From a virus (taxonomy: Duplodnaviria > Heunggongvirae > Uroviricota > Caudoviricetes), in IMG/VR virus record IMGVR_UViG_3300018414_000006, positions 1 to 64,000 of that record: a stretch of 64,000 bases of DNA; one strand, written 5' to 3'. Below, in pieces: positions 4,757 through 54,373 of the stretch (position 1 is the first letter of the stretch; each line of letters begins with the position of its first letter). Under the pieces are notes generated by a model, which worked only from the letters and a program-made list of their open reading frames with translations, ran no database searches and was not told the origin of the DNA. The translations under genes and the position numbers were made by a program.

Positions 4757-5029
4757 GTGAAACGAACCCTTCTTGTTGAGAAAGATCCTGATTCCTGCTA
4801 TGGCGCTACGGTATTAGGATTATCCGGATGCTACACATATGGAAACTCGATTGAAGAACTATGCATAAATGCAAAACAGGCGATTCGTTCTCATGTGGAA
4901 ATTATGAGTCAGTGCGATTCTGAAATAGATAATTTGTTTTTGGAATCGGGAATCGAACATTGGAAAAACTGTTTTGATCAGACTTCTCTCATAGAAGTAG
5001 ATGTGAACATTGACGATCTCAAAAATTAA
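4757..5029 (+). CDS. HicB-like (UPF0150) antitoxin-fold protein
   Basis: VEKDPDSCYGATVLGLSGCYTYGNSIEELCINAKQAIRSHVE resembles the HicB N-terminal domain (xEKDEDGGYVAxxPDLPGCxTQGDTLEEALxNAKEAIE). It begins with GTG. Confidence 0.4.
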   Translation: MKRTLLVEKDPDSCYGATVLGLSGCYTYGNSIEELCINAKQAIRSHVEIMSQCDSEIDNLFLESGIEHWKNCFDQTSLIEVDVNIDDLKN

Positions 5030-6680
5030 CATGGCTACTCAAAAACAGTATAATTCTGACAGCATTGAAACTTTACGCTTTCCTGATTCCATTCGAAGAA
5101 ATCCTTCTATGTATCTCGGAAGTGTTGATGCTGACGGTGTGTGGCTTTGCGTAAGAGAATTACTAGATAATGGTCTTGATGAACATCTGGCAGGACGAAA
5201 TGATTCAGTGCATTTTCATGCGGACAATGATGGATCTTTTTGGGTTCTGGATTCTGGACAGGGTGTTCCTCAAGGAGTTAAAAATTATACTACTAACATT
5301 GGTGGTAAAGAAGTAAAACATTCAATGCCCACAATGCAGGCAGTGTTCGGAGAACTTCATACCTCTGGTAAATTTCGAGATGATGCTTACGCTGTTTCAG
5401 TCGGCACACATGGCGTAGGTGCGAAGGGAACTAATGCAACGTCAGATTTTTTTGATGTTCATACATTCTACAAAAATAAATGGTATTCGATTGGTTTCAA
5501 AAAGGGCAAAATTACATCTTCTGTAAAAGAAACCAATGCACCTGTTTTGTGGAATGGTACAAAAGCATCACAGGGAACAGTTATTCACTTCAAGCCAGAT
5601 GCTACTATTTTCACTGCAAAATCCTTCGCACCTAGCAGGATTGTAGAGTGGTCGGAAATCATGGCATATCTGAATCCGGGATTTCGAATCACTGTCAGTT
5701 CTTCAAAAGGAAAGAAGCAATTCTTTTCACGCAAAGGGACTACTGAATACGTCGCACAACGTATGCTCAAGCTGAAAACAGAAGGCGAGCGAACCCTGTT
5801 TGAATATCATGATTCACTTGCGGATATTGTTGTCGCTTTTACAAATCACGATGGTTTTGAAATACGTGGATTTACTAACGGGTTGAATAATAGCCAGGGT
5901 GGCAAGCACGTCGATTCCGTGGTCGGTGCTTTGTACAAAGGGTTGAGTCCTTATATTAAAACTCGCAAGGTACGAGAATCTGGCAAAGTAAAAACTGTTC
6001 CAGTATTTAAAGAAGCGGATCTTAAGGAAGGTCTTGTTGGATTGATTAATGCAAAGTTGCACAAAGCACAATTCAGTTCTCAGGATAAAGCTCGTTTGAC
6101 AGATGATCGTGTCGGAAAAGATTTTGAAGAAACCGTGACTAAAGCCACACTTTCCTTTTTCAGGGAAAACAAAGCTATGGCACTTCGTATCTGCGAACGT
6201 GCTACCAAACTGAATGAGCTTAAAGGTAAGTTCACTCTAAGCAAAAAAGCTGCTGCTACACTTAATGCTGTCAAAAGAAATGGTCTTCCTGCAAAATACG
6301 CACCCTTTAATTCTGCAACTAAAACAGCAGACAGAGAACTTTTTCTTGTGGAAGGCGATTCGGCAGGTGGTTGCTTTTTGGGCAATACACAAATTCGTCT
6401 TAGTGATGGAAGCATTATTTCTTTTGAGGACTTAGAATCCAATAAAAACTTTCCAAAAATTGGTATATCTTGGGATATTGATAAATCACAATTTCTTGAT
6501 ACTGAGTTGAAAGACGTGCGTATTACTAAATACGCACGGCAATTGATTGAACTCACATTTGAAGATGGATCTACTGTGACTTGCACTCCGGATCATCAAT
6601 TTTTAACGGAAAACAGAGGATACGTTGAAGCACAACATTTATGTAGTGACGATATCATACAGCAATACCGGCAGAAATAA
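5010..6680 (+). CDS. Topoisomerase II large subunit (T4 gp39/GyrB-like): N-terminal part fused to a 102-aa N-terminal split-intein fragment
   Basis: GHKL ATPase motifs (ELLDNGLDE, HGVGAKG) run through the TOPRIM motif EGDSAGG. Then come intein block A (CFLGNTQIRLSDGS) and block B (TVTCTPDHQF), followed by a stop. The intein fragment spans 6372..6677. Confidence 0.85.
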   Translation: MTISKINMATQKQYNSDSIETLRFPDSIRRNPSMYLGSVDADGVWLCVRELLDNGLDEHLAGRNDSVHFHADNDGSFWVLDSGQGVPQGVKNYTTNIGGKEVKHSMPTMQAVFGELHTSGKFRDDAYAVSVGTHGVGAKGTNATSDFFDVHTFYKNKWYSIGFKKGKITSSVKETNAPVLWNGTKASQGTVIHFKPDATIFTAKSFAPSRIVEWSEIMAYLNPGFRITVSSSKGKKQFFSRKGTTEYVAQRMLKLKTEGERTLFEYHDSLADIVVAFTNHDGFEIRGFTNGLNNSQGGKHVDSVVGALYKGLSPYIKTRKVRESGKVKTVPVFKEADLKEGLVGLINAKLHKAQFSSQDKARLTDDRVGKDFEETVTKATLSFFRENKAMALRICERATKLNELKGKFTLSKKAAATLNAVKRNGLPAKYAPFNSATKTADRELFLVEGDSAGGCFLGNTQIRLSDGSIISFEDLESNKNFPKIGISWDIDKSQFLDTELKDVRITKYARQLIELTFEDGSTVTCTPDHQFLTENRGYVEAQHLCSDDIIQQYRQK

Positions 6681-6856
6681 GTTCTAATGTGGAAATATTG
6701 TTGTGCCGTAACAATGTCCTTATCGTAAGCAATACAAAATTTCTTATACCATTTCTTGTTCTTGCTCTTAACTGCTATTGCTCGCATCTTAGGATAGTCG
6801 TTCATAGTTTTATTTGGTTGAGGGTGACAAGACATACAACGAAATAAAATTAACAA
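6596..6856 (-). CDS. possible small ORF in the 176-bp gap between the split-intein halves (TTG start; the MSCHPQP... or MNDYPK... form from an internal ATG may be the real one)
   Basis: The only minus-strand ORF that does not overlap a stronger + strand gene. It is Cys/Lys-rich, with no recognisable motif. Its position matches where free-standing endonuclease genes sit in other split-intein loci. Confidence 0.15.
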   Translation of the reverse strand: MLILFRCMSCHPQPNKTMNDYPKMRAIAVKSKNKKWYKKFCIAYDKDIVTAQQYFHIRTYFCRYCCMISSLHKCCASTYPLFSVKN

Positions 6857-8146
6857 ATGAGAATCGTAAATAAACGTAGAATAGAACTACAGAACCCAGT
6901 TCCTGTATACGATCTAACGGTGGATGATTATCATAATTTTGTTTTAGCTAATGGTGCTGTTGTGCATAATAGCGCAAAAGAAGCTCGTTATCAATTTCAG
7001 GCAGTTCTTCCCCTAAAAGGAAAAGTTGCAAATGCTCTAAAAATGGAACAGTCTAAAACTCTGGAATCAGAAGAAATTATCAATATTCTGGCAGCGATTG
7101 GTTATGATATAAAAGCAGCAGATCCATATGCGCGTTTGTCAGTTGGCAAAATTATCTGTCTGGCTGATCCTGATCCTGATGGCCCATTTATCGGAAACAC
7201 GTCAATTCTTATGCGTCCGCCTGGCGCTTTTGAGGGTATTTATAACAAGACTCTTACTATCGAAGAACTGGCCAACGCCAATACTGCTTTTGAAGTACCC
7301 GTGTGGTCTGGTGGCAAACAGATATGGGCATCCGCCAGTGCAAGTTTTATCAAAAATGTAGACCAGATTGTTGCTCTGGAAATTGGTAAAACCAAATTCA
7401 AGGTGGATCTCAATCACAAGTGGATGTGCCTCAATACCAATTCTCTGAAGGGTCGTGAAGTAACGCCTTTCAATGATAATCTGGTGTATGTGAAAGCGAA
7501 AGATCTGCGTGTTGGTGATCGTGTGTTTATGCCATTTAACAATAATAGCAAAAAACCTTCGGAAGTGGATTACAATACGCGATTAGGCTATGCGCCTGTT
7601 TCCAAAATGCGAATTCAGAAACTTGATGAACCTGTACCTGTCTATTGTCTCAATGTACCTCGTTATCATCATTTCATTCTTCCTTCTGGAGTAGTTTCAA
7701 GTAATTGTCACATCAACAGTCTTTTGCTGGCACTGTTCTACAAATATCTTCCAGATCTTTTCACACGAGGAATGATATATGTTTCCGCTGCACCAGAATT
7801 CTATGCAATTCATAAAGGCAATCTGGTAACAGGCGACAGACTTTCTGTGATCAGTGACAAGCTTAAAAAAATTGGAGCATCTGAAAATACACCAATAGTT
7901 CACATTAAAGGCTGGGGAGGAATCAACGCTGACTTGATGCGTATCTTTGCGATGAATCCATCATCAAGAAGACTTATTCAGATAAGAGCTATAGAAAAAG
8001 AAGATCGTGTTGAGTTTGTTAAGCTCATGAATGAAGATGTCGAATTTCGAAGAGAACTTTTTAATCTTCCAATAAATGCAGTCAAAGGATCAGTCAGCAA
8101 AGCAGGAATTATTTCTGCAAAGAATCTTTCTGAAAAGGTGAAATGA
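6857..8146 (+). CDS. Topoisomerase II large subunit (T4 gp60/GyrB C-terminal-like): 38-aa C-terminal split-intein fragment plus C-terminal extein, with a second internal intein
   Basis: MRIVNKRRIELQNPVPVYDLTVDDYHNFVLANGAVVHN|S gives blocks F and G. SAKEARYQFQAVLPLKGKVANALK continues GyrB TOPRIM ([25 protein letters not shown]). DPDPDG is followed by an insert, then CHINSLLLALFYKYLPDL...GMIYVSAAPEF (GyrB: DADVDGSHIRTLLLTFFYR...GHVYIAQPPLY). Confidence 0.85.
   Translation: MRIVNKRRIELQNPVPVYDLTVDDYHNFVLANGAVVHNSAKEARYQFQAVLPLKGKVANALKMEQSKTLESEEIINILAAIGYDIKAADPYARLSVGKIICLADPDPDGPFIGNTSILMRPPGAFEGIYNKTLTIEELANANTAFEVPVWSGGKQIWASASASFIKNVDQIVALEIGKTKFKVDLNHKWMCLNTNSLKGREVTPFNDNLVYVKAKDLRVGDRVFMPFNNNSKKPSEVDYNTRLGYAPVSKMRIQKLDEPVPVYCLNVPRYHHFILPSGVVSSNCHINSLLLALFYKYLPDLFTRGMIYVSAAPEFYAIHKGNLVTGDRLSVISDKLKKIGASENTPIVHIKGWGGINADLMRIFAMNPSSRRLIQIRAIEKEDRVEFVKLMNEDVEFRRELFNLPINAVKGSVSKAGIISAKNLSEKVK
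7184..7705 (+). other. Second, contiguous mini-intein (174 aa) between the TOPRIM DPDPDG motif and CHIN; class-3-like signature
   Basis: The N-terminus PFIGNTSILMRPPG is paralogous to CFLGNTQIRLSDGS but starts with Pro. Block B DLNHKW supplies His plus Trp. Block F PVYCLNVPRYHHF has Cys where intein 1 has Asp (VYDLTV). The C-terminus is GVVSSN with +1 Cys. Confidence 0.55.
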
Positions 8147-8147
8147 A

Positions 8148-9653
8148 ATGGTCACTAGAAAAAAAGCAACTCTTTCAGATTTGATTCCCACAAAAGATCA
8201 GGATGTTTTATTTGAATCGCTTCGAGAGTTTGGCAAGCGTAACATGACGATATACGCGGCCGCTGTAAATCTGGACAGATCAGTTCCTGATCTTTTTGAC
8301 GGACTCAAAACGGTTCAAAGGCGCGTGCTTTACGGAACGTTCAAAGAAGCATCCTCACAGTTTGAAAAAACCGCGCGTGTTGTGGGCACCGTTCTGGGTA
8401 GATACCACCCGCACGGGGATCTGTCTGTAGTAAAAGCCATTGAGACAATGGTGCACACTGCTACGCCCGTAGTGACTGGCGAAGGAAACTGGGGCAACAT
8501 GATCGATGGCTGTGCGGCAATGCGTTATACCGATTTGAGATTATCCCAATTCGGAAAAACTTTCTTTGATCCTGATTACATTAACAGTCAGGTAACTTCC
8601 TTCATACCGAATTACGATGATAAAGATGTTGAGCCAGTGACTTTGCCCGCACAACTTCCTAACGTTTTGATGAATGGAAATTCTGGAATCGGTGTAGGTA
8701 TAACAACTACGCTACCTTCATTCACACCCGAATCAATTCAGACTGTTTTGAAAAAAATGCTACAGGGTGAAAAACTGGAAGCTGCTGATTTTGCAAAAAC
8801 TTTGAAGTACGCTCACAAGTGGGGAGGACAACTTGTTAGAACAAAAGAAAATCAGCAGGCATGGCTGAATCTGTTTCAAGGAACCGCAGCTTCTGTATTG
8901 TTTGAATCGGATATTGAAGTAGATCGAGATCATAAACAAATGGTAATTTCGGATTGGCCTCAAGGAACTGATCTTGAAAAATTTGTGAGCAAGATTCGAG
9001 CTATGCCTGAATGCCTGTCTTGTCAGAACTCCAAAGGCTCAATTACCTACACGATCAAATGCAAACCTGCTTATAACTACAATCAGTTTGACAAGTTTCT
9101 TGACAAGGTGAAACGTGCAACACGACAAAAACGTTCTTTCAAACTTAATGTTACTTTGCGGGAATCGCGCACGGTCGATGGCGTAACTACCTTTGAAACA
9201 AAATTTCTTGCAATGTCTGTTCCAGAAATTCTAGTGACATGGCTTCATCTTCGTCTTGATCTTGAACGTCGCAGCCTTGAATGTCGTATCGAAAAACAGA
9301 ATGTTGCTATTGCATATTCTGAGTTACTTCTCTATGCATGCGATAAACTTGACGCAATTTTCAAAGCATTGCGATCCACCGACCCAGAAAGCACAATGAT
9401 GCGTTTGCTCAAAATTACACGTGATCAGTCACAGCAGATCCTGGAATTGAAAGTGCGTCAGTTATCAAAACTGGATCAGTCTGAAATCAGACAGAAATTG
9501 AAAGATCAACAAATGCATTTGAGGCAATTGCAGGCGTGGTTGAAAAAACCGCGCAGCAAGGTAGCACTCGATATAGACAAGACACTTGAATGCATACAGC
9601 GAGATCGTGATGTAGTCACAAAACGCGAAACTCGAAAATTGCAAGTAGTATGA
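8148..9653 (+). CDS. Topoisomerase II DNA breakage-reunion subunit (T4 gp52/GyrA N-terminal-like)
   Basis: LKTVQRRVLYGT (GyrA LKPVHRRVLYAM), YHPHGDLSVVKAIETM (YHPHGDSAVYDTIVRM), and AMRYTDLRLSQ with the catalytic-Tyr motif (AMRYTEIRL). Confidence 0.85.
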   Translation: MVTRKKATLSDLIPTKDQDVLFESLREFGKRNMTIYAAAVNLDRSVPDLFDGLKTVQRRVLYGTFKEASSQFEKTARVVGTVLGRYHPHGDLSVVKAIETMVHTATPVVTGEGNWGNMIDGCAAMRYTDLRLSQFGKTFFDPDYINSQVTSFIPNYDDKDVEPVTLPAQLPNVLMNGNSGIGVGITTTLPSFTPESIQTVLKKMLQGEKLEAADFAKTLKYAHKWGGQLVRTKENQQAWLNLFQGTAASVLFESDIEVDRDHKQMVISDWPQGTDLEKFVSKIRAMPECLSCQNSKGSITYTIKCKPAYNYNQFDKFLDKVKRATRQKRSFKLNVTLRESRTVDGVTTFETKFLAMSVPEILVTWLHLRLDLERRSLECRIEKQNVAIAYSELLLYACDKLDAIFKALRSTDPESTMMRLLKITRDQSQQILELKVRQLSKLDQSEIRQKLKDQQMHLRQLQAWLKKPRSKVALDIDKTLECIQRDRDVVTKRETRKLQVV

Positions 9654-52297: not shown

Positions 52298-52342
52298 CCA
52301 TTGATACGCAACGTATTAGCAATATTCGGCTAGTCAGTATTT

Positions 52343-52377
52343 CCACAGTGTGTAATTTTATTTTATGCACACTGTGG
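52343..52377 (+). promoter_or_regulatory. 5'UTR hairpin CCACAGTGTG-N15-CACACTGTGG ending 10 nt before the protease ATG
   Basis: Perfect 10-bp inverted repeat. The 3' arm is missing from the second copy of the element at about 54840. Confidence 0.4.
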
Positions 52378-52387
52378 AAATTTCATC

Positions 52388-54373
52388 ATGAACAGTCTAT
52401 ATCTTCCGGAAGCCTGGCGCTCTGCAAAAGCATCTTTCAAAAAGAAAATAATTGCTAAACAGACTCTAGCAGATTCGCTTTCTTCTAATCTAGTCAATAC
52501 TATCAATACGCCGAATGCACCTGCATTTGATGCAGAAAAAGATCAATCAATGCTTCAGGCACTTGATTATCCTACCTGGCTTCCATTTGCAGCGAAAACT
52601 TATCATATCAGTCCACACATTGAAGACTACATCATTATTCCGACTATTGTCTGTCCTTCAGATCTTCCCAATAGAAATGGTATAGGTTTTCCCGCAAAAG
52701 AATTGGCCACTTTTCTTCCGCCCCCTACTAACCGCATGGCGTACAAAGCATGGGCAGGATGTCCTGTTCACTGTTTTACGGGTGATACAAAAATCCGCAC
52801 GTCAAAAGGATTGCGAAATATCAAAAATATTAAAGTTGGGGATAAGGTACTAACACACAAACATAGGTTTAGAAAAGTAACACATGTTTTTGATAACGGA
52901 ATTCAAAAACTTAAAAGGATTAATTGTTACGGAATCACAATGCCTATTCTGGTTACCGACAATCATCCAATGTTTGTTGTGGACCGTCGTCAATTGTTTG
53001 GTTCTTCAAACTTAGGAACTGTTAGCAAGTTTGGAAAAGGGGCAAAAAATGAATATTCTAAAAAAATAAATTCACATTTTCGTCCTGTTTCTGATATTTA
53101 TCCACTTGACTATTTAGTAGTTCCAATTACAGTAGGTGGCAATAAAAAAGTTGACCCCAATTTTGCATTTTTAACAGGATTATATGCTGCTGAAGGAAAT
53201 CTGGAACCTAACAATAAAGCAATTGGAAAATTTACTAGCGCCAATTTTACTTTAGCTTTTTCAGAAAAAGATCTTCTTGATAAAGCAATAAATTGCGCAG
53301 AATCTTTAGGATTACAATACAAAAAATGGTATAACAAAAAGGACAAAACTTCAGGGTTTACTATTTACAACAGAAACTTTGCACATGCAATGTACGATCT
53401 AGTTGGTGCTTATTCACATAAAAAGAAAATGAAGGGTGAACTACGCAAATGGAATAAAGAGGGACTTGCTCACTTTTTAGGTGGCTATATAAGTGTAGGT
53501 GGCCCTGTAAAAGGTAAACATCGATTAAGATGCCGTACTGTATCTGAAGAATTAGCACAAGATATACAAATGACTTTTGGTCGTCTGGGTATTCCTGCCA
53601 GTGCCAACAATGATGGCGGCTGGACTTCCACGTTTACATCAAAATACCATACACGAAAAGGAATGCGTAAAAATCTTGAAGGAAAACCATTCAGGTCAAA
53701 TGGTACTTCATTTTGTATTAGCGCATCTTTGCATGAAATAGATTTGTTGGTTCCATACGTGGTTGGTCGTAAATTTAAACAATTAAAACAGAAAGTTAAA
53801 GATACAAGCCCCAAAATATTGGTATATAAAAATCATATACTTCTTCCTATATCTTCAATTGAAGATGCTGGAAAAGAACCAGTTTTTAATATTGAAGTTG
53901 AAGAAGATCATACTTATGTTGCAGGGGGTGTCATAGTTCATAATTGCGAACATGATAATGAAATACATGAAAAAGCTTATGGGGTAGTGCTCGATTCAAG
54001 TCTTCACAAAGTTACAGGATATGGTGGTGGAAAACTATGGAAAGTCATGGGGCTGCTTGCAGTAGATAAAAACAAATATCCTGATATTGCACAACAGGTA
54101 CTGACAGGTGAAATCAATACTTATTCTATGGGCGCACTTGTTGATTATTTTACCTGTAGTTATTGTGGGCAGGAATGTTCTTCAAAATACATGTGCCAAC
54201 ATGTTTCTTCTCCAGAAACTATTAATTGGAAATCTGTTAAAGATTTTGATGGTTCGGAACACATAGCATTTCTTAATGCTCACAATATACAGCCGATAGA
54301 AGTGAGCATTGTGAAAGATCCTGCGTGGGCACCTGCTTTATCGGACACACGTTTATCTCTAAAGGAAATTTAA
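52388..54373 (+). CDS. Intein-containing protein; the extein resembles the T4 gp21-type prohead core protease
   Basis: Intein boundaries are PVH|CFTGDTKIRT and GGVIVHN|CEHD. N-extein NGIGFPAKELATF...MAYKAWAGCPVH parallels T4 gp21 KRLYPKRILEKAV...KQALGELNHP. C-extein PDIAQQVLTGEINTYSMGALVD parallels GDKLAANIRAGWIPGVSSRGLGS (the Ser nucleophile region). The gene lies immediately upstream of the scaffold and capsid genes. Confidence 0.45.
   Translation: MNSLYLPEAWRSAKASFKKKIIAKQTLADSLSSNLVNTINTPNAPAFDAEKDQSMLQALDYPTWLPFAAKTYHISPHIEDYIIIPTIVCPSDLPNRNGIGFPAKELATFLPPPTNRMAYKAWAGCPVHCFTGDTKIRTSKGLRNIKNIKVGDKVLTHKHRFRKVTHVFDNGIQKLKRINCYGITMPILVTDNHPMFVVDRRQLFGSSNLGTVSKFGKGAKNEYSKKINSHFRPVSDIYPLDYLVVPITVGGNKKVDPNFAFLTGLYAAEGNLEPNNKAIGKFTSANFTLAFSEKDLLDKAINCAESLGLQYKKWYNKKDKTSGFTIYNRNFAHAMYDLVGAYSHKKKMKGELRKWNKEGLAHFLGGYISVGGPVKGKHRLRCRTVSEELAQDIQMTFGRLGIPASANNDGGWTSTFTSKYHTRKGMRKNLEGKPFRSNGTSFCISASLHEIDLLVPYVVGRKFKQLKQKVKDTSPKILVYKNHILLPISSIEDAGKEPVFNIEVEEDHTYVAGGVIVHNCEHDNEIHEKAYGVVLDSSLHKVTGYGGGKLWKVMGLLAVDKNKYPDIAQQVLTGEINTYSMGALVDYFTCSYCGQECSSKYMCQHVSSPETINWKSVKDFDGSEHIAFLNAHNIQPIEVSIVKDPAWAPALSDTRLSLKEI
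52772..53944 (+). other. Intein (391 aa) with a LAGLIDADG homing-endonuclease domain
   Basis: Block A CFTGDTKIRTSKG; LAGLIDADG-like FLTGLYAAEGN and AHFLGGYISVGG; block G VAGGVIVHN followed by +1 Cys. Confidence 0.75.

Follow-up and report, generated by a model that had tools for sequence, protein, structure and literature searches.

How does an intein that starts with proline leave its host protein, and does it leave at all? This question is raised by positions 7184-7705 (+ strand) of a 64,000-nucleotide stretch of a tailed phage genome (IMG/VR record IMGVR_UViG_3300018414_000006, positions 1 to 64,000; hereafter the window), which encode a 174-amino-acid mini-intein, Pro1 to Asn174, made of a HINT domain without an endonuclease domain. 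It is the second intein (intein 2) in the large subunit of a jumbo-phage type II topoisomerase, where it interrupts the DxDxDG|(S/C)H active-site motif of TOPRIM. Its sequence and those of its relatives make it probable that this endonuclease-less mini-intein is active, most likely by the class 3 route. In class 3 inteins a non-nucleophilic residue 1 is found in co-variation with a B:12 Trp, an F:4 Cys and a G:5 Thr, and the block F Cys forms the first branched intermediate; Pro1 is also the first residue of the class 3 prototype, MP-Be DnaB (PMC2807308).

Intein 2 is a genuine intein (HINT) domain, and a chance match is excluded. It sits inside an uninterrupted open reading frame (ORF) at 6857-8146, on which the Pfam family Intein_splicing (PF14890) scored 52.2 bits (E 7.9e-14) against a cut-off of 35.8 bits. 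An AlphaFold2 model of the region shows a two-lobed beta fold with a mean predicted local distance difference test (pLDDT) score of 80, and Foldseek matched this model to solved inteins and to bacterial intein-like (BIL) domains with a probability of 1.0. A profile of the intein's family matched the Pho RadA intein in the PDB at 3e-12, and a search with the single sequence gave a weak match to Pho RadA only. The translation of 7184-7705 reads PFIGNT...DLNHKW...PVYCLNVPRYHHFILPSGVVSSN and then runs into CHINSLLL; taken by segments it is PFIGNTSIL … KVDLNHKWMC … PVPVYCLNVPRYHHFILPSGVVSSN, preceded by ICLADPDPDG. By homologue alignment, this ICLADPDPDG (7154-7183, + strand) is the end of the N-extein and holds the acidic DxDxDG metal-binding motif of TOPRIM, with Gly at -1. 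The C-extein (7706-8146, + strand) opens with CHINSLLL and carries the remaining TOPRIM sequence and, up to the stop codon, the GyrB C-terminal region (Pfam DNA_gyraseB_C, E 7.8e-6). The Pfam Toprim match on ORF 6857-8146 had an E-value of 0.0097, below the cut-off.

The exact ends of the insert come from alleles that do not carry it. These were retrieved using the in-silico spliced extein as the query, at 50-62% identity, and alleles P0152, P0153, P0154, P0155 and P0157 read DPDPDG-(S/W/C/A/H)HIN. Because they fix the junction, the boundaries are exactly G|P…N|C, with Pro at residue 1 (CCA, 7184-7186) and Cys at +1. The first-pass annotation, made from the letters of the window, had placed a 174-residue intein-like insert between DPDPDG and CHINSLLL and had read its first residue as Pro, and it was right on both. 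A shifted N-terminal boundary at the upstream Cys of ICLAD was considered and rejected, as that Cys is not conserved in relatives and the intein-free alleles fix the junction. A recent, compositionally foreign insertion was rejected too, with a guanine-cytosine (GC) content of 0.41 in intein 2 and 0.37-0.40 in its flanks. One intein-free allele, P0154 on a 173-kilobase contig, reads DPDPDG-CHINSLLL and so has Cys at +1, a position held by S, W, A or H in the remaining intein-free alleles. This is what precise loss of the intein, or a splice-product-like sequence, would leave.

If residue 1 is not the nucleophile, which residue might be? The class 3 inteins used for comparison were collected with the MP-Be intein, taken from phage Bethlehem gp11, and come to 78 full-length sequences including MP-Be. 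They mostly begin with Ala1, all carry the Trp-Cys-Thr (WCT) triplet, mostly end in T-H-N, and 76 of them have Ser or Thr at +1. When the profile of the TOPRIM intein family is globally aligned with the profile of these 78 inteins, Pro1 of the window aligns with position 1 of MP-Be and the canonical inteins (A/P1), Thr6 in block A with Thr6 of MP-Be, His78 (B:10) with His65, Trp80 (B:12) with Trp67, Cys155 (F:4) with Cys320, Ser172 (G:5) with Thr339, Ser173 (G:6) with His340, Asn174 (G:7) with Asn341, and Cys175, the +1 residue, with Thr+1. His78-Lys-Trp80 of the window faces His65-Gly-Trp67 of MP-Be in this alignment. On the + strand of the window, block A (PFIGNT, 7184-7201) begins with the non-nucleophilic Pro1 and ends with Thr6, which is invariant across the family, and block B (DLNHKW, 7406-7423) contains His78 (7415-7417) and Trp80 (7421-7423). 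Block F (VYCLNVPRYHHFIL, 7640-7681) contains Cys155 (TGT, 7646-7648), the predicted first nucleophile, and block G (SGVVSSN|C, 7685-7708) contains Ser172, Ser173 and Asn174 (7703-7705), followed by Cys+1 (TGT, 7706-7708).

Like class 3 inteins, intein 2 has no residue-1 nucleophile, Cys at F:4 and Trp at B:12, and like inteins in general it ends in Asn with Cys, Ser or Thr at +1 (Asn174 and Cys+1). Hoffmann et al selected class 3 inteins by two features only, the absence of Cys at the N-terminal end and the presence of Cys at F:4 (PMC7891396). Class 1 inteins have Cys, Ser or Thr at residue 1, where intein 2 has Pro, and class 2 inteins of the KlbA type have Asp at F:4 and Ala at residue 1, where it has Cys and Pro. 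The earlier reading had taken DLNHKW in block B as supplying His and Trp, had noted a block F Cys where intein 1 of the same gene has Asp and a Ser in place of the penultimate His, and had called the whole a class-3-like signature. All of this stands: His78 is B:10 and Trp80 is B:12, Cys155 and the Asp of intein 1 both fall on F:4, block G ends Ser172-Ser173-Asn174, and in the alignment to class 3 inteins the Cys and the Trp lie on the class 3 positions. The sequence and family evidence together support a class 3 interpretation.

The family evidence comes from a profile search run over 1.84 billion cluster representatives, which returned 561 proteins at E≤1e-3; complete inteins, 117 in number, were extracted from the best 150. 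Forty of the 117 have no nucleophile at residue 1 (38 have Pro and 2 have Asp), and Cys is found at F:4 in all 40. Ser or Thr stands at G:5 in 39 of them, a residue other than His at G:6 in 37, and Cys at +1 in 34. The remaining 77 inteins begin with Cys1, and have Cys at F:4 in 34 cases and another residue in 43; Fisher's exact test of 40/40 against 34/77 gives 4e-11, which is descriptive, the sequences being related. The same D-x-D-x-D-G|(C/S)-H site holds 37 of the 40, so the family has at least 37 cluster representatives. About ten of these 37 are 437-455 amino acids long and contain a large insert of ~270 amino acids, which leaves room for an inserted domain and which Pfam did not identify.

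The TOPRIM-site inteins are divergent from one another, with a median pairwise identity of 30% and a minimum of 19% among 25-27 representatives. The columns that are invariant across these representatives are Thr6, His78, Cys155 and Asn174, joined by Gly169 in the 25-sequence alignment, and Pro1 is found in 26 of 27. Across the family B:12 is mostly W and at times F or L, and the B:10 His is invariant. Every intein-bearing allele has Cys or Ser at +1, where the intein-free alleles have S, W, C, A or H. Pro1 and Ser+1 are combined in six family members, for example P0005, P0011, P0040 and P0086. This pattern of conservation is as selection for splicing through the F:4 Cys would predict, and it seems hard to square with a dead insert that is retained in the protein.

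The same intein is also present in the topoisomerase genes of cultured phages that are viable. A tblastn search of 50,697 phage records found it in phiRSL1 ORF333 (gyrB), BcepSauron gp169 and BcepSaruman, jumbo phages which are the closest cultured relatives of the window phage. These inteins read DPDPDG|PFV…PVPVYCLTVP…S-S/A-N|CHINSLLL and are 43-44% identical to intein 2 of the window. The phiRSL1 intein lies at L004:3001-3540 and the BcepSauron intein at L005:3001-3540, with an F-C-S triplet, and the three phage records say only 'type IIA topoisomerase' and leave the intein unannotated. The papers searched describe neither this family nor any type II topoisomerase with a class 3 intein. InBase lists a class 3 intein in TOPRIM, which may be related to the present family. 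Homologous topoisomerase genes carry intein 1 only, intein 2 only, both, or neither, and this presence/absence polymorphism, together with the members that have large inserts, indicates a mobile element.

Other explanations of the same residues were weighed against the class 3 route. One is that Cys+1 attacks the Gly-Pro bond directly, as in the KlbA Ala1 inteins, and that Cys155 is accessory or structural. Class 2 inteins too have no residue-1 nucleophile (PMC2807308), and intein 2 has the Cys+1 that this chemistry would use, as do 34 of the 40 inteins described above. We nevertheless think such a route very unlikely, as the Cys that is invariant at F:4 in all 40 is Asp in class 2 inteins (PMC2807308), and as Ser is unable to attack an amide. 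For the six members with Pro1 and Ser+1 the class 2 route is implausible because the +1 residue would have to attack the junction directly.

The first-pass annotation had also raised the alternative of a splicing-dead intein left as a permanent insertion in TOPRIM, and this is now disfavoured. In such a relic the loss of Cys1 would have killed the intein, and the HINT domain would be tolerated where it is, or the gene would be non-functional. The termini of a HINT domain lie near each other, which could make the insertion tolerable, and both the residue-1 nucleophile and the penultimate His are absent from intein 2. One inactive class-3-like intein pseudogene, Arsp-FB24, has been described (PMC3196547). 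Against this, the B:10 His, F:4 Cys and G:7 Asn are invariant, with C or S at +1, in a family of 30% median identity, and the +1 nucleophile is constrained only in alleles that bear the intein, which argues for active splicing and not for a dead insert. The ORF is intact, the GC content of the intein is in line with the flanking gene, and the family is widespread, with some members that carry the ~270-residue insert, so that a dead relic is highly improbable. The least probable explanation is a conditional or regulatory intein whose class 3 chemistry is held in check, a Cys155-Cys+1 disulfide or metal binding being conceivable gates, leaving the topoisomerase active only in certain infection conditions: prediction places the two catalytic cysteines next to each other, and two studies report that oxidative stress and zinc reversibly inhibit the mycobacterial class 3 intein DnaBi1 (PMC6195587, PMC7360933), but no sequence feature specifically favours gating, and it would be compatible with the class 3 reading rather than a true alternative to it.

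Some observations weigh against an active class 3 intein. At G:5 the class 3 Thr is replaced by Ser172, which keeps the hydroxyl, and the penultimate His is replaced by Ser173, which is off consensus. Cys at F:4 is also found in 34 of the 77 Cys1 inteins, which makes it unspecific among these neighbours. By sequence intein 2 falls outside the canonical class 3 clade, with hidden Markov model (HMM) cross-scores of 12-16 bits and an E-value of 0.4 for the class 3 structures 6rix/6riy. Finally, we infer the splicing of intein 2, the order of its nucleophiles and its block F branched intermediate from sequence. Its Cys+1 departs from the Ser or Thr that is typical, and not obligatory, in class 3 inteins. 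Each of the unusual residues has a precedent. WCS and FCS triplets are both among the 1,702 catalogued class 3 inteins (PMC7891396 Table S1), mutation of G:5 has a minor effect in MP-Be (PMC2807308), the proven class 3 intein AceL NrdHF has neither a block F His nor a penultimate His, and a Cys+1 is present in the class 3 intein Bvi IcmO (PMC5222942). The Ser at G:5 is treated here as a tolerated deviation from the class 3 consensus.

The most likely order of events is the following. The thiol of Cys155, aided by His78 and packed on Trp80, would attack the Gly(-1)-Pro1 bond and form a branched thioester on the intein. The N-extein would then pass to Cys+1 by trans-thioesterification, and cyclisation of Asn174 would free the intein. 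An S-to-N shift would remake the DPDPDG-CHIN peptide bond and complete the TOPRIM metal-binding site.

If intein 2 does use class 3 chemistry, does it descend from the known class 3 inteins? The canonical class 3 clade is taken here as the lineage retrieved with MP-Be, of the form A/P1-L-A-L-D-T ... WCT ... T-H-N|S/T. With the family HMM, canonical class 3 inteins reach a median of 15.6 bits, and with the canonical class 3 HMM the family reaches a median of 12.0 bits. The family HMM gives the class 1 inteins retrieved alongside a median of 85-95 bits, and hhalign scores the family at 254-275 against its class 1 neighbours and 56-62 against canonical class 3; the class 1 figures carry an ascertainment bias because these class 1 sets were picked by similarity to the query profile. 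The PDB profile search served as an unbiased control, and at E<1e-3 it returned 30 chain sequences of class 1 inteins or BILs, Pho RadA first, with the class 3 MchDnaB1 structures 6rix and 6riy only at E ~0.4. No AceL NrdHF chain (6zgq) was among the matches of this search, and in Foldseek 6zgq came only at rank 38 among the structural matches. A neighbour-joining bootstrap tree sets canonical class 3 apart from all others (100%), and its internal backbone support of 1-43% is too low for it to decide monophyly or the direction of change. In sequence the family lies far nearer to the class 1 inteins of phages than to the canonical class 3 clade, a hint that its origin was independent.

The TOPRIM site itself hosts three pairings of residue 1 with F:4, namely Cys1/Asp, Cys1/Cys and Pro1/Cys. 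The first is found in P0041, which belongs to a different lineage, and the second in P0034, P0038, P0075 and P0113, which belong to the same lineage as the Pro1 inteins (142-191 bits on the family HMM). Residues ~900-1060 of P0041 hold two inteins seven residues apart (…VHN|CDADADG|CLLGET…) that flank DxDxDG, the second being an ordinary class 1 intein at the site of the Pro1 family. Allelic pairs of the same kind occur elsewhere. At the VDYDD site of a DnaB-like helicase, P0122 and P0024 have Cys1, Asp at F:4 and V-H-N, and P0073 and P0109 have Asp or Pro at residue 1, Cys at F:4 and T-H-N, with Thr at G:5; at an AAA-ATPase site (…NR), the class-1-type P0098 stands opposite the class-3-type P0068. 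For the class-3-type inteins at the helicase and AAA-ATPase sites, class 1 HMMs give far higher scores than the canonical class 3 HMM does. These pairs suggest that a class 1 signature has repeatedly changed into a class 3 one. The Pro1/Cys-F:4 inteins of TOPRIM may accordingly be imagined as a second class 3 lineage that evolved independently from class 1 phage inteins by a recurrent change, a proposal we hold tentatively and rate at somewhat short of even chances. It has been published that class 3 inteins are implausible to have evolved directly from class 1 (PMC7664689). An independent origin, if true, would contradict both this view and the monophyly of class 3 (PMC7664689), and would supply natural intermediates.

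The host gene is that of a phage-type topoisomerase II, whose large subunit spans 5010-8146 (PHROG 543, E 8e-86) and is followed by an A-like subunit at 8148-9653 (PHROG 551). The N-extein of the large subunit (5010-6371, + strand; Pfam DNA_gyraseB and HATPase_c, PHROG 543) comprises the GHKL ATPase, the GyrB transducer and the start of TOPRIM. The first-pass annotation had put two inteins into one topoisomerase gene. Both do interrupt the large subunit, but the gene consists of two ORFs (5010-6680 and 6857-8146), and intein 1 is split between them. Its N half, 102 amino acids beginning with Cys1 (6372-6677, + strand), ends the upstream ORF, and its C half, 38 amino acids reading MRIVNKRR…VVHN|S (6857-6970, + strand), opens the downstream one. 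With Cys1, Asp at F:4 and VHN|S, intein 1 is a naturally split class 1 intein; its joined halves score 53 bits on Intein_splicing, and relatives P0154 and P0082 open with the same C half. The halves are separated by a spacer of 179 nucleotides (6678-6856) with no recognisable endonuclease gene. The sole ORF there is an 85-amino-acid one on the minus strand (6596-6856), which matched no family and did not resemble the endonuclease-like gene of contig L006. Since intein 2 is carried on a polypeptide that starts with the C half of intein 1, the mature topoisomerase subunit needs one trans-splicing and one cis-splicing event. The likeness of the ends of the two inteins, which had been pointed out from the letters, was confirmed with BLASTP (E 2e-8, 53% identity over 36 amino acids in the C-terminal blocks F-G), and the whole domains, when aligned, are 25% identical and keep all four blocks (A, B, F and G) in register.

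A second arrangement of a split gene was seen in a related phage, on L006, the contig of P0082. At L006:2258-6385 a 'fractured' topoisomerase gene carries a split intein at another site (after PLKGKILN), with a 427-amino-acid gene on the opposite strand between the intein halves (DUF7487 and a weak TnsA-like N domain), and a Pro1/Cys-F:4 intein at the TOPRIM site downstream of the split intein. The window has 38% GC, and scans of it for tRNA genes and Rfam families gave no matches. A HicB-like antitoxin ORF (4757-5029; Pfam HicB_lk_antitox, E 7e-10) lies directly upstream of the large-subunit ORF, whose start it overlaps. Another intein of the window, the third, has 391 amino acids and lies at 52772-53944 (ORF 52334-54370), inserted after AGCPVH of its host protein. 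It is long enough for an endonuclease domain and class-1-like, with CFTGDT… at its start, Asn at F:4 and VHN|C.

Class 3 is a rare mechanistic class, and its origin is debated between a monophyletic, phage-derived one and convergence. The intein of the window is a probable further class 3 member within a sizeable unannotated phage lineage, with an unusual active site and possibly an independent origin. With it comes a well-populated and uncharacterised family of at least 37 cluster representatives and three cultured jumbo phages, placed where a type II topoisomerase has its metal-binding motif. The active site is unusual in combining a W/F-C-S triplet with a missing penultimate His and, in most cases, Cys+1. 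The natural Cys1/Cys-F:4 alleles at the same site make a class 1 to class 3 transition experimentally testable, and small, endonuclease-free class 3 inteins with a natural Cys+1 could serve protein engineering. The topoisomerase genes of phiRSL1, BcepSauron and BcepSaruman need an intein feature in their annotation. The appeal of these results is high for intein specialists and limited elsewhere.

Among known systems, the MP-Be DnaB intein (gp11, AY500153) shares with intein 2 the Pro1, the H-x-W of block B, the F:4 Cys (which is obligate in MP-Be), a hydroxyl at G:5, the Asn end and a phage origin. It differs in being 341 amino acids long with a LAGLIDADG endonuclease, in ending T-H-N|T and in its P-loop host, whereas the window has a 174-amino-acid mini-intein that ends S-S-N|C in TOPRIM; overall similarity is insignificant, and the A2 profile scores MP-Be at -0.3 bits. 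The Burkholderia vietnamiensis Bvi IcmO intein is likewise a mini-intein without a residue-1 nucleophile and with Cys at F:4 and +1, and both of its branched intermediates are thioesters (PMC5222942), but its triplet is the canonical WCT and its host protein is bacterial. AceL NrdHF (6ZGQ), for which the class 3 mechanism is proven, resembles intein 2 in its phage-like metagenome source, its atypical triplet (MCT) and its lack of a penultimate His. Unlike intein 2 it is split, has Ala1, Ser+1 and an NrdHF host, and has no block F His, which the window intein keeps. The best sequence and structure matches are class 1 inteins, namely the mini-inteins of Pho RadA, Pab/Pho CDC21-1, TFIIB and NrdJ-1 and those of phages, intein 1 included. 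These start with Cys or Ser, and the solved structures and intein 1 have Asp at F:4 and usually V-H-N at the C-terminal end. The inteins of phiRSL1, BcepSauron and BcepSaruman have Phe at B:12 where the window has Trp, and share with intein 2 the same site, Pro1, Cys at F:4 and the S-S/A-N|C end.

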